Assembly (NCBI RefSeq): GCF_041248615.1
Contig: NZ_CP158426.1
Source: Escherichia coli
GTDB lineage: Bacteria; Pseudomonadota; Gammaproteobacteria; Enterobacterales; Enterobacteriaceae
Direction: 5' to 3' (one strand)
Length of the DNA: 64,000 nt
Position numbers: made by a program. Below, piece by piece: positions 48,201 through 54,200 of this stretch; position 1 is the first letter of the stretch; every line of letters begins with the position of its first letter.

Positions 48201-51200
48201 CCGCCACGCACACCGCCCTGAGAGCAGGATTTCACCGCTGTCTGGAAATGCTTATAGAACGGAATACAACCGGTATGGAACGCTTCGCCACCGCGAATCG
48301 GGCTACCCAGCGCACGAATACGCCCGGCATTGATGCCGATCCCGGCACGCTGGGAAACGTATTTAACAATCGCGCTGGAGGTGGCGTTAATGGAATCCAG
48401 GCTGTCACCGCACTCGATCAGTACGCAGGAGCTGAACTGACGAGTCGGGGTACGCACGCCGGACATGATTGGCGTCGGCAGCGAAATTTTAAATGTGGAA
48501 ACCGCGTCGTAAAAACGCTTCACGTATTGCAGGCGCGTTTCACGCGGGTAGTTCGAGAACAGGCACGCGGCAACCAGAATATAAAGGAACTGGGCGCTTT
48601 CGTAGATTTCGCCGGTCACGCGGTTCTGTACCAGATATTTGCCTTCCAGCTGCTTAACGGCAGCATAAGAGAAGGTCATATCACGGTCGTGATCGATAAA
48701 CGTGTCCATCTGCTTGAACTCTTCTTCCGTGTAGTCTTCCAGCAGATGATTATCGTATTTGCCCATCTCGACCATTTTCACCACGTGGTCGTACAGCGCA
48801 GGCGGCTCAAACTGGCCGTAGGCTTTTTTACGCAGGTGGAAGATCGCCAGGCGCGCGGCGAGATACTGATAATCCGGCGCATCACGGGAGATCAGGTCTG
48901 CGGCAGCCTTGATAATGGTTTCGTGGATGTCAGAGGTCTTGATACCGTCATAAAACTGAATGTGGGAGCGCAGTTCGACCTGGGAAATCGAAACGTTATG
49001 CAGTCCTTCTGCCGCCCAATCCAGAACGCGATGGATTTTGTCGAGATTGATGCGCTCTGTGCTACCGTCGCGCTTTGTCACCAGCAGATTCTGATTCATG
49101 TATGTCGTACCTGTTTTTGGAATTCTTTCCGCAATAGTTTCGTGCAGACTACCTGTAGTACGGGAAGCTGCTTAGAACACTATATATAGGGGGTATGTTT
49201 GGGATTCACTGCAAGATAGTGTGAAAATGGCCCTCTTGCAAGTGCATAACTTTGTGGATAACTCAGGAAGGAAAAAGTGGCTTTCGCGCACCTTAGGTCA
49301 GACAAGGTGTCCGGGAAAGTCAATGGGAAGAGAAAAATTTGTTAAAAATAACTGTTCGGCGATTTCTTGAACGGCAGAATAGGTTGGATAAATTGATATA
49401 GATGGTTTATTAATCTTTTTGCTAATGATTGCAAAAATTGATCTAAGTACGAGTCATCACATAATCTGATGTATCAGTTGTGGTCAATATATAAGCGAAT
49501 GTAAGCGATTGTTGATGTCGAAATGGTTGTTTTCTCTTCGGTTGTTGTTAAATGCGAAGCCATTTTGTTAATTTACCTTATATTATAAGAAAATTATTCA
49601 TTACTTTAATTCAGTTTAAACATAACTGATATCCCTTAAGGTGATTAACTTGAATTATGACGCACTGATATTATTCATGAAATAATAACAAAATAGCCAT
49701 TGCACCGGGTTGAACAATTTACAAAAGAAAAATAACCCATATCGTATAATGCGATTAAATATGCCGTCTTATAGAAAATGATGGTCAGATTAATATGCGG
49801 ATTATTTTTCTACGCAAGGAGTATTTATCTTTACTCCCGTCAATGATTGCATCTCTTTTCTCTGCTAACGGTGTCGCGGCGGCCATTGATTCATGTCAGG
49901 GATATGATATCAAAGCGAGTTGTCACGCCAGCAGGCAAAGCCTTTCAGGCATTACGCAGGACTGGAGCATCGCCGATGGGCAATGGCTGGTTTTTTCGGA
50001 TATGACCAATAACGCCAGCGGTGGGGCCGTATTTTTGCAACAAGGAGCGGAGTTTTCTCTATCGCCAGAAAATGAAACTGGAATGACTCTGTTTGCCAAT
50101 AATACTGTCTCAGGAGAATATAATAACGGCGGGGCAATATTTGCTAAAGAAAACTCAACGCTGAATCTTACTAATGTTATTTTTTCCGATAACGTTGCAG
50201 GTGGCTATGGTGGCGCAATCTATTCTTCTGGTACTAACGATACCGGTGTCGTCGATTTAAGTGTCACTAACGCCGTGTTTCGCAATAACATCGCTAATGA
50301 CGGCAAAGGTGGTGCAATTTATACCATCAACAATGACGTCTATTTAAGTGAAGTTATTTTTGACAATAACCAGGCATATACATCAACAAGTTACAGCGAT
50401 GGCGATGGGGGCGCAATCGATGTCACCGATAATAATAGCGATATCACGCATCCGTCAGGTTTCACAATAATAAATAACACCGCATTTACAAATAACACTG
50501 CCGAAGGTTATGGCGGGGCAATTTATACCAATAGCGTGACGGCTCCCTATCTTATTGATATTTCGATTGATGACAGCTACAGCCAGAACGGCGGCGTGTT
50601 ACTCGATGAGAACAATAGCGCGGCAGGTTATGGGGATGGTCCTTCCACTGCGGCGGGCGGCTTTATGTATCTCGGCTTAAGTGAAGTTACCTTTGATATT
50701 GCCGACGGAAAAACGCTGGTTATCGGCAATACAGAGAATGACGGAGCTGTTGACTCTATTGCTGGTACCGGGGTAATCACCAAAACAGGTTCCGGCGATC
50801 TGGTACTTAATGCAGATAACAATGACTTTACTGGCGAGATGCAGATAGAAAACGGTGAAGTTACCCTGGGCCGCAGCAACTCCCTGATGAATGTCGGCGA
50901 TACGCATTGCCAGGACGATCCGCAAGACTGCTACGGTCTGACGATAGGGAGTATTGATCAGTATCAGAATCAGGCTGAGCTAAACGTTGGCTCGACCCAA
51001 CAAACTTTTGTGCACGCATTGACGGGCTTTCAGAATGGCACTTTAAATATCGATGCTGGTGGCAACGTTACTGTTAATCAGGGCAGTTTTGCTGGCACCA
51101 TCGAAGGTGCTGGTCAGCTCACCATTGCGCAAAACGGCAGCTACGTGCTGGCAGGGGCTCAGTCGATGGCGCTAACTGGCGATATAGTCGTTGATGATGG

Positions 51201-54200
51201 TGCGGTGCTTTCACTGGAAGGCGACGCGACAGATCTCGCCGCTCTCCAGGACGATCCGCAGTCGATTGTGGTAAACGGCGGTGTGCTCGATCTCTCTGAT
51301 TTCTCCACCTGGCAGAGCGGTACATCATACAACGATGGCCTTGAAGTCAGCGGCAGCGGCGGTACGGTTATCGGCAGTCAGGATGTGGTGGATCTCGCAG
51401 GTGGCGACAATTTGCATATCGGCGGCGACGGTAAAGATGGCGTCTACGTGGTGATCGATGCGGGCGACGGGCTGGTTAGCCTGGCAAACAATAATAGTTA
51501 CCTGGGCACCACGCAAATCGCTTCCGGTACGCTGGTGGTGAGTGACAACTCGCAGCTTGGCAATACCGACGAAAACCGTCAGCTCATCTTTACTGATAGC
51601 CAACAACAAAGTGAGATGGAAATTACCGCTGACGTTGATACTCGTTCAGAGGCAGCAGGTCACGGGCGTGATATTGAAATGCGCGCCGACGGTGAAGTGG
51701 CGGTTGATGCGGGGGTAGACACGCAGTGGGGCGCACTGATGGCTGACAGCAGCGGGCAGCATCTGGATGAGGGTAGCACATTGACTAAAACGGGAGCGGG
51801 TACGCTGGAAATGACCGCCAGTGGTACGACGCAGTCGGCGATACGTGTCGAAGAAGGCACGCTGCAAGGCGATGTTGCGGATATCTTCCCTTATGCTTCG
51901 TCGCTGTGGGTCGGTGACGGGGCAACGTTCAAGACTGGCGCGGATCAGGATATTCAGTCAATTGATGTTACTTCCAGCGGCACTATCGACATCAGCGATG
52001 GTACGGTTTTGCGCCTGACCGGGCAGGATACTTCCGTCGCCCTTAATGCCTCACTGTTTAACGGCGATGGGACGCTGGTGAATGCCACCGATGGCGTGAC
52101 GTTGACAGGCGAGCTTAATACCAACCTTGAAACTGACAGCCTGACTTATCTTTCCGACGTAACAGTTAATGGCAATCTGACCAATACGTCCGGTGCGGTC
52201 AGCCTGCAAAATGGCGTCGCCGGCGACACGCTGACGGTAAACGGTGATTATACCGGCGGCGGTACGCTACTGCTCGATAGCGAATTAAACGGCGATGACT
52301 CGGTAAGCGATCAATTGGTGATGAACGGTAATACTGCTGGCAACACAACTGTGGTGGTTAACTCCATTACAGGGATTGGTGAGCCGACATCGACAGGCAT
52401 TAAAGTGGTTGATTTCGCAGCTGATCCCACGCAGTTTCAAAACAATGCGCAGTTCAGTCTGGCAGGCAGCGGCTACGTCAATATGGGAGCGTATGACTAC
52501 ACGCTGGTGGAAGATAACAACGACTGGTATCTGCGATCGCAAGAAGTAACGCCACCATCGCCACCTGATCCAGACCCGACTCCTGATCCAACACCCGACC
52601 CGGAACCTACGCCTGCCTACAAGCCGGTGTTGAATGCCAAAGTTGGTGGATATTTTAATAACCTGCGGGCGGCAAATCAGGCGTTTGTGATGGAGCGACA
52701 CGATCACGCTGGTGGCGATGGTCAGACGCTGAATTTACGTGTTATCGGCGGAAATTATCATTACACAGCAGCGGGGCAACTGGCTCAGCATGAAGACACT
52801 TCTACGGTGCAGCTTAGCGGCGACTTGTTTAGCGGGCGCTGGGGCGCGGATGGCGAGTGGATGCTTGGGGCGGTTGGTGGCTACAGTGATAACCAGGGCG
52901 ACAGCCGCTCGAATATGACCGGAACTCGCGCCGATAACCAGAACCACGGTTATGCGGTTGGGCTGACCTCAAGCTGGTTTCAGCACGGTAAGCAGAAGCA
53001 GGGGGCCTGGCTGGATAACTGGTTGCAGTACGCGTGGTTTAGCAATGATGTTTCTGAACATGAAGATGACGTGGATCATTACCATTCGTCGGGGATTATC
53101 GCCTCGCTGGAAGCGGGGTATCAGTGGTTACCGGGGCGTGGTGTGGTGATTGAACCGCAGGCGCAGGTGATTTATCAGGGCGTGCAGCAGGATGATTTTA
53201 CCGCCGCTAACCGTGCGCGCGTGTCACAATCGCAGGGCGATGATATTCAGACGCGGCTGGGTTTACACAGCGAATGGCATACCGCTGATGGTGTCACGCC
53301 AACTTTAGATGTGAATTATTATCACGATCCCCATGCGACGGAAATTGAAGAAGATGGCAGCACTATCAGTGACGATGCGGTGAAGCAACGGGGTGAAATA
53401 AAAGTGGGAGTCACGGGCAATATCAGTCAGCGAGTTTCGCTGCGCGGCAGCGTGGCGTGGCAGAAAGGGAATGATGATTTTGCCCAGACGGCAGGGTTTT
53501 TGTCGATGACGGTGAAATGGTAGCTGCTTTGCGCCCGGCATTGTAGCCGGATGTGGTGCGAGCACCTTATCCGGCTAACAATTTTATTTATTCTGCGTGT
53601 GCAGCATATAGTTCACATCAACGCCGGGGCCGAGCTTAAAGGTGTTAGTGATAGGGTTGTAATGCAGCCCGGTTATATGTCGCTCTTTAAGGCTTGTCTG
53701 ATCTACCCAGCCAAGCAGTTCTGCCGGTTTAATAAACTTCTTCACATCATGCGTACCTTTGGGCACCATGCGCAAAATATATTCCGCGCCAACCACCGCC
53801 ATCAGCCACGACTTGCCGTTACGGTTAAGCGTCGAGAAAAAGACATCGCCGCCCGGTTTCACCAGTTGCGCACAGGCTCTGACCACTGACTGCGGATCGG
53901 GAACGTGCTCCAGCATCTCCATGCAGGTCACCACGTCATACTGTTCGGCATGTTTTGCCGCGTGCTCTTCCACGGTTTCCTGCACGTACTCTACCTGAAT
54001 GCCACTTTCCAGCGCGTGCAACTTTGCCACCTGCAATGGCTCAAAGCCCATATCCAGACCGGTCACCGTCGCGCCTTCCCGCGCCATGCTCTCGGCCAGA
54101 ATGCCGCCGCCACAACCGACATCGAGCACCTTTTTGCCAAATAAACCGCCAGCACGCTCGGCAATATAGCCCAGACGCAGCGGGTTAATGCGGTGCAGCG

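Follow-up and report, generated by a model that had tools for sequence, protein, structure and literature searches.

The nrdA–yfaL spacer and the length-polymorphic proline-rich linker of the autotransporter YfaL/EhaC in Escherichia coli

The DNA analyzed in this study, referred to below as the window, is a stretch of 64,000 nt from Escherichia coli (GCF_041248615.1, contig NZ_CP158426.1), in which we investigated the spacer between the divergent genes nrdA and yfaL as well as a short proline-rich segment encoded within yfaL, both of which had been singled out in an original prediction made from the sequence. Altogether, the spacer seems to be composed of the nrdAB control block and an H-NS-bound promoter island, and yfaL seems to encode an AIDA-I-type autotransporter with a proline-rich tether that is polymorphic in length; we put the probability of this reading at roughly 0.85. 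According to it, an H-NS-coated 'promoter island' with at least one sigma-70 promoter facing yfaL would extend over the AT-rich 419 bp next to yfaL and over the 5' end of the gene, which is AT-rich as well, and this island would hold yfaL essentially silent under laboratory conditions. Evolution would preserve the length and base composition of this distal segment, not its sequence. In the tether, slippage or unequal recombination between short direct repeats would add or remove whole codons, and the outcome would be lineage-stable alleles of 21–33 residues in E. coli.

The spacer between nrdA and yfaL

The main features of the locus are as follows:

46814–49099, minus strand: nrdA, alpha subunit of class Ia ribonucleotide reductase (open reading frame of 761 residues, ATG at 49099; transcribed away from yfaL)
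49100–49375 (276 bp), minus strand: conserved nrdAB regulatory block with 5' untranslated region, promoter, and upstream sites (cross-genus identity)
49376–49794 (419 bp, 29% GC), plus strand: AT-rich yfaL upstream region, counterpart of a K-12 'promoter island' (composition; PMC3661553; PMC3946193)
49438–49465, plus strand: sigma-70 promoter TTGATC-16-CATAAT toward yfaL (exact match to a sequence listed in a genomic SELEX study, i.e., systematic evolution of ligands by exponential enrichment; PMC3946193)
49795–53523, plus strand: yfaL/ehaC, AIDA-I-family autotransporter adhesin (intact open reading frame of 1242 residues; Pfam domains; RefSeq name)

The open reading frames of nrdA and yfaL leave a spacer of exactly 695 bp (49100–49794) with a GC content of 0.347, compared to 0.515 for the whole window, which confirmed the predicted AT-rich region between the two divergent genes. 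Base composition is uneven within the spacer, with 0.424 at 49100–49370 and 0.297 at 49371–49794, and the window-wide minimum per 424 bp (0.292) is located in its distal part. The spacer was found in 5,425 of 5,426 complete E. coli genomes, and in strain 7/2, where RefSeq lists inaA, yfaE, nrdB, nrdA, ypaB, yfaL, and ubiG as neighbors, it is 100% identical to that of the window. The order nrdA–yfaL–ubiG–gyrA is retained in the window, E. albertii revealed the same synteny, and nrdA is also adjacent in Pseudocitrobacter. Matching genes are named 'AIDA-I family autotransporter adhesin YfaL/EhaC' throughout the RefSeq annotation. The deduced protein of the window is 94.7% identical to YfaL of K-12 and only 82% to alleles of phylogroup B2. 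By its position and its high identity to the K-12 protein, the locus is the YfaL/EhaC orthologue.

For comparison, we aligned seven spacers, namely those of the window, K-12, O157, B2, a divergent Escherichia, E. albertii, and a metagenome-assembled genome of Pseudocitrobacter; since a contig scan beyond the E. coli collection gave only three loci that could be used, the cross-genus part of the comparison is based on few sequences. The alignment revealed a sharp conservation boundary near position 49375. On the nrdA side, the block 49100–49375 showed identities to the window of 99.3% (K-12), 95.8% (B2), 89.5% (E. albertii), and 82.4% (Pseudocitrobacter); judged by its sequence, this block is under strong purifying selection across genera. 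The distal 419 bp displayed 95.2% identity in K-12, 95% in O157, and 85% in B2. In the divergent Escherichia, E. albertii, and Pseudocitrobacter, it dropped to 45–50%, as expected by chance for DNA of such a composition. At the same time, all seven distal segments, which belong to three genera, are 412–422 bp long with a GC content of 0.27–0.29, and the whole spacer measures about 690–700 bp in every case. The distal part is thus conserved in sequence within E. coli proper only, and its length and base composition are kept beyond.

The original prediction had described this distal part as typical of silenced adhesin promoters and had pointed to H-NS chromatin immunoprecipitation (ChIP) data as a means of checking it. 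This description agrees with what is published for K-12, where the yfaL/ypaB spacer is one of 78 'promoter islands' (island 2342143_534) and carries the H-NS code 'A', meaning that each of the three ChIP studies taken into account had found it bound (PMC3661553, Table 1). Genomic SELEX likewise placed an H-NS site and a constitutive yfaL promoter within the K-12 yfaL<>nrdA spacer (PMC3946193). In the window, we found the corresponding AT-rich stretch of more than 300 bp (419 bp, 29% GC versus 51.5% for the window) upstream of a poorly expressed, acquired-looking gene, and AT-richness continues into the 5' end of the yfaL coding sequence (GC content of 0.43 over 49795–50500). With 95% identity to K-12, H-NS occupancy would carry over to the window spacer, the coordinates of the K-12 island would map onto the distal segment, and yfaL would presumably be silenced in the window strain as well.

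The sigma-70 promoter at 49438–49465 is located about 330 nt upstream of the yfaL ATG. Its -35 hexamer TTGATC contains the sole GATC of the 695-bp spacer (position 49440), a site that is not kept outside E. coli proper. A study of N6-methyladenine listed yfaL among differentially methylated biofilm genes, and it placed yfaL in a group with cryptic biofilm genes of K-12 (PMC10653831). Binding of GadE/GadX has been reported near yfaL, and induction of yfaL in K-12 gives adhesion (PMC9110714). A promoter/terminator scan of the spacer detected no terminators, and a permissive scan of 48900–50000 against Rfam resulted in no family, so that no known small RNA or riboswitch is indicated in the spacer. 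Tandem Repeats Finder reported just a trivial 10-nt doublet, and a search for element-like repeats in the spacer revealed only short, weak direct and inverted repeats.

In the nrdA-proximal block, the following sites were identified:

49146–49161, minus strand: NrdR box 2, GTACTACAGGTAGTCT (exact match to oligonucleotide nrdAB_1,2; PMC12176259)
49177–49192, minus strand: NrdR box 1, CCCCTATATATAGTGT (exact match to published oligonucleotides, PMC12176259; invariant in 7/7 spacers)
49209–49224, minus strand: former 'NrdR box 0' (overlaps the -10 region of nrdA; exact match to oligonucleotide nrdAB_0,1; PMC12176259)
49241–49261, minus strand: DnaA-box pair, TTATGCACT at 49241–49249 and TTATCCACA at 49253–49261 (invariant in 7/7 spacers)
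49227–49370, plus strand: ypaB, annotated small open reading frame of 47 residues (RefSeq annotation), within the regulatory block of nrdA

The NrdR and DnaA boxes postulated for this part of the spacer were therefore recovered as exact matches to published sites. They mark the 276 bp beside nrdA as the classical nrdAB control region, with the NrdR boxes downstream and the DnaA pair upstream of the promoter. NrdR binds the pair of boxes 0 and 1 very weakly, and boxes 1 and 2 represent the true high-affinity site (PMC12176259); the regulators named for nrdA include H-NS and DnaA (PMC12176259; PMC4009431). The element at 49253–49261 is the sole perfect DnaA box (TTATCCACA) within the 64 kb. As to ypaB, a Pfam search of its product gave no match, B2 strains lack its start codon, and E. 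albertii has a stop at codon 18, so that there is no support for a genuine gene for a small protein. Judging from these alleles, ypaB is unlikely to be conserved as a coding sequence, and because of the lost start and the premature stop, the conservation of this segment is better ascribed to the nrdA cis-elements.

A stretch of about 130 bp upstream of nrdA that includes the DnaA pair (49223–49352; 1501–1615 in L019 and 4001–4139 in L002) resembles phage and plasmid DNA; it is 83–95% identical to a segment located between genes in phages P1, P7, and SJ46 as well as in about 300 P1-like plasmids. The P1 counterpart is situated just upstream of hot, which encodes a homologue of the theta subunit of DNA polymerase III, and P7-type genomes share a longer homology (129 bp at 95%). 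This homology is not new, as part of the segment is already annotated in the P1 record as homologous to the 'E. coli DNA region containing two predicted DnaA boxes'.

The proline-rich linker of YfaL and its alleles

Pfam analysis of YfaL revealed the domains Chlam_PMP, PATR, AC_1, and Autotransporter. Residues 780–1242 were modeled with AlphaFold2 using an alignment of 17 sequences (mean predicted local distance difference test score, pLDDT, of 85.5). The C-terminal part is organized as follows, all on the plus strand:

52174–52506: autochaperone domain, residues 794–904 (Pfam AC_1, E = 2.3e-18)
52552–52614: length-polymorphic proline-rich linker PPSPPDPDPTPDPTPDPEPTP, residues 920–940 (translation; allele comparison; pLDDT)
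52636–52680: predicted alpha-helical segment before the barrel, residues 948–962 (residues 169–183 of the AlphaFold2 model; superposes on AIDA-I 4MEE)
52735–53454: autotransporter beta-barrel, Pfam residues 981–1220 (PF03797, E = 3.1e-33; barrel of the model at 978–1241)

In the model, a beta-helical autochaperone region is followed by a low-confidence stretch, the helix 948–962, and a barrel of 12 long strands. The autochaperone region resembles that of IcsA (3ML3; phmmer matches, Foldseek TMt 0.68), and the model matches the AIDA-I transport unit 4MEE with a Foldseek TMt of 0.91, a root-mean-square deviation of 2.1 Å, and a phmmer E-value of 1.9e-35. With the barrel, the helix, and the beta-helical passenger with its autochaperone all matched, YfaL belongs to the classical type Va (AIDA-I-type) autotransporters. 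Its N-terminus MRIIFLRKEYLSLLPSMIASLFSANGVAAA looks like a putative Sec signal peptide, and display vectors use a 28-residue YfaL signal peptide (PMC13101318).

The linker had originally been placed at 52551–52614 and described as arising from near-identical short repeats. The peptide PPSPPDPDPTPDPTPDPEPTP is indeed encoded there, with its true start one base later at 52552, and repeats do exist, although the description is overstated for the window allele, in which an 18-nt unit is present in just 1.9 copies (88% matches) according to Tandem Repeats Finder. The tract is encoded by imperfect CCN-GAY/ACN codon pairs in succession; the Asp-Pro codon pairs (GAT-CCN) also yield a local cluster of Dam sites at 52535–52588. 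With 12 prolines among 21 residues, versus 15 among the 1221 residues of the remaining protein, the linker is enriched far beyond chance. The only internal stretch of the model with a pLDDT below 50 (920–941) coincides with it. Proline-rich tracts were detected at the same junction in homologues of 30–37% identity and in the orthologues of E. albertii and Pseudocitrobacter, differing in length and sequence, e.g., with about 54 residues of PPxPPx in Pseudocitrobacter. Based on this domain order, the linker would be an unstructured, probably extended tether that starts where the beta-helical passenger ends with its autochaperone and leads to the helix entering the 12-stranded barrel, and since it joins these two parts, its place would be on the cell surface, immediately outside the pore. 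A longer tract would then mean a longer tether. Searchable literature yielded no experiments on the function of the YfaL linker.

That the length of the linker varies between strains, as predicted, was borne out when about 5,419 complete E. coli genomes, arranged in a ranking, were sampled twice at even spacing (40 + 60 = 100 rows). Relative to the window, the rows were distributed as follows:

+0 nt: 4/100
+6 nt: 23/100
+9 nt: 1/100
+12 nt: 1/100
+24 nt (K-12, O157): 59/100
+30 nt: 6/100
+36 nt: 2/100
1 nt short of the +24 class: 2/100
Deletion or partial match: 2/100

Apart from the two rows that are 1 nt short, all length differences are multiples of 3 nt, and the sequenced alleles have tracts of 21, 23, 24, 29, 31, and 33 residues. 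One of the 1-nt-short records was inspected (H48); it is annotated as 'frameshifted', and as its linker is intact, the lesion lies elsewhere. The window carries the shortest intact allele (21 residues), and 207 of 5,419 records (3.8%) are at least 99% identical to it over 201 bp spanning the linker. Compared to the K-12 allele, the window allele lacks 24 nt that lie between two direct repeats CCNGATCC, a difference that, at the sequence level, is characteristic of slippage or unequal recombination. In a comparison of seven full-length alleles, 21 of the 23 gap columns fall within the linker, making it the indel hot spot of the gene, and substitutions cluster in the passenger (residues 1–750). 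One and the same linker length was seen in all sampled O157:H7 and K-12-derived genomes, so that the variation appears between lineages and not within clones. Strain 7/2, with a spacer like that of the window, yet carries a +30-nt linker and mosaic differences along yfaL, which points to recombination within the gene.

A half-length BLAST match in strain E7-1N7 had raised the possibility of an insertion sequence (IS) in the linker, but this strain harbors an intact allele of 31 residues, and the short match was an alignment artefact. In strain VTB97022v (L011; window positions c. 52440–52600), an in-frame deletion fuses FAADPT to PDPDPTPDPEPTP, thereby removing the end of the autochaperone region and the first part of the linker; this gene of 3585 bp is annotated as intact in RefSeq, and the junction appears to lie between short repeats coding for ADPT/PDPT. 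Furthermore, the yfaL contigs of many Shigella sonnei draft assemblies stop inside the proline-rich linker (end of L023, start of L020/L022; P0012, P0023–P0075). One ends with ...PDPDPTPDP and another starts with APTPAYQPV, without overlap, and such contigs begin at a fixed point near residue 300, which suggests IS insertions or a longer, unassemblable tract in S. sonnei yfaL.

Alternative readings of the spacer and the linker

For the spacer, it might be argued that the distal 419 bp mainly serve nrdAB, as an upstream activating, bending, H-NS-responsive, or insulator element, and do not primarily silence yfaL. H-NS has been reported as a repressor of nrdAB (PMC12176259; PMC4009431), and a segment whose length and AT content are kept in three genera without sequence conservation, within a spacer of about 690–700 bp in all genera compared, would suit such a role. 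We nevertheless regard it as quite improbable, because the conservation typical of nrd cis-elements ends abruptly at about 49375, the promoter mapped inside the segment faces yfaL, and AT-richness extends into yfaL (see above), as is typical of H-NS-bound acquired genes. Since length and GC content are constant and sequence similarity is at the level of chance, selection for a physical element is conceivable; in its strongest form, the distal 419 bp would be a composition-coded module, selected as an H-NS nucleation or insulator element between the nrdAB promoter, which is essential and timed to the cell cycle, and a silenced adhesin gene, with linker alleles perhaps matched to the thickness of surface polysaccharides. 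We consider this extended version very doubtful.

With respect to the linker, the repeat tract could in principle be a contingency locus, with slipped-strand frameshifts turning yfaL on and off, considering that it consists of short repeats within a surface-protein gene and that two of the 100 rows are 1 nt short, with H48 annotated as 'frameshifted'. However, the remaining length differences are in frame, the H48 record has an intact linker with its frameshift outside, the units of 6–18 nt are imperfect and few, and identical alleles recur across many members of a clone, by which phase variation is effectively refuted. An adaptive explanation, in which linker length is tuned to the thickness of O-antigen or capsule, or is varied antigenically to escape antibodies as proposed for pertactin R2, is unlikely but deserves consideration. 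Lengths fall into discrete common classes (about 59% at +24 nt, 23% at +6 nt, and 6% at +30 nt), the passenger is highly diverse (82% amino acid identity between phylogroups), repeat numbers of pertactin R1/R2 vary among alleles (PMC8931430), and yfaL has repeatedly been reported under positive selection (PMC9110714). On the other hand, alleles are stable within lineages, and a gene that is H-NS-bound and grouped as cryptic in K-12 would have limited exposure to selection. The range in E. coli is also narrow. An extended polyproline-II conformation spans about 0.31 nm per residue, and if the linker adopts it, alleles of 21–33 residues would differ in reach by about 4 nm at most. Compared to a passenger of about 900 residues, this would be little, so that a tether is expected to be needed and its exact length to be loosely constrained. 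In our judgement, the presence of the tether is selected and its exact length drifts within bounds, with an effect that is probably small at most.

Some points weigh against the combined reading of control block, promoter island, and length-polymorphic tether favored here. The evidence for H-NS binding and silencing comes from K-12 and not from the window strain. A simple consensus scan found 6 promoter-like sites in the spacer versus 3.8 ± 2.3 in composition-preserving shuffles, so that a promoter density beyond AT-richness is not demonstrable; the published island call used a different algorithm. For the linker, low pLDDT in a model built from 17 sequences is an indirect sign of disorder, the placement of the helix inside the barrel is a prediction, and any effect of linker length on phenotype is hypothetical. 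Finally, the reports of positive selection on yfaL leave some room for adaptive variation of the linker.

Neighboring features and relation to known systems

Elsewhere in the window, an IS3-family insertion sequence was identified between inaA and yfaE (43864–45221), consisting of a helix-turn-helix orfA (176 residues) and an rve orfB (240 residues). It does not occur in strain 7/2, despite the identical nrdA–yfaL spacer. Another extended AT-rich part of the window is located at 6031–8054, with about 35–37% GC over about 2 kb. Strain E7-1N7 (L029, 4425–5100) carries a frameshifted gene for a GntR-family regulator downstream of ubiG, where the window has gyrA.

The closest relatives of the system are YfaL/EhaC of K-12 and O157:H7, which share gene, synteny, and Pfam architecture with the window; the linker differs, with 21 residues in the window and 29 in K-12. 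The spacer has its counterpart in the published list of H-NS-bound promoter islands of K-12, and at 95% identity we saw no difference in kind. Similarly, NrdR boxes 0, 1, and 2 and the DnaA boxes are identical to those of the published nrdAB promoter region, for which NrdR, DnaA, Fis, IciA, and H-NS are described, and no difference was found. TibA of enterotoxigenic E. coli possesses a proline-rich segment between its junction/autochaperone region and the membrane-embedded domain (PMC3835316), i.e., at the same position as the YfaL linker. The TibA segment comprises about 50 residues, compared to 21–33 residues of PD/PT/PE dipeptides in YfaL. Region R2 of Bordetella pertactin is proline-rich as well, is left unresolved by the crystal structure, and varies slowly in repeat number among alleles and species (PMC8931430). 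It thus resembles the YfaL linker in being proline-rich with an allele-variable repeat number, but it is described as a loop of the passenger beta-helix and has another repeat motif, whereas the YfaL linker is a tether between autochaperone and barrel. With 12 prolines in 21 residues and in-frame variation between strains, the YfaL linker fits the class of length-polymorphic proline-rich segments of autotransporters.

The locus, its regulatory neighborhood, its H-NS occupancy, and the autotransporter architecture are already documented, and the features described here are real but ordinary; the polymorphism of the linker is a routine example of the kind known from TibA and pertactin R2. A minor addition is the quantified description of the YfaL linker as an indel hot spot, and the survey of its alleles is possibly useful for YfaL-based surface-display scaffolds or for typing with ehaC as a virulence marker. 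As a further minor addition, the distal spacer, in which length and composition are conserved without sequence, illustrates on a small scale what is conserved in H-NS-bound DNA.

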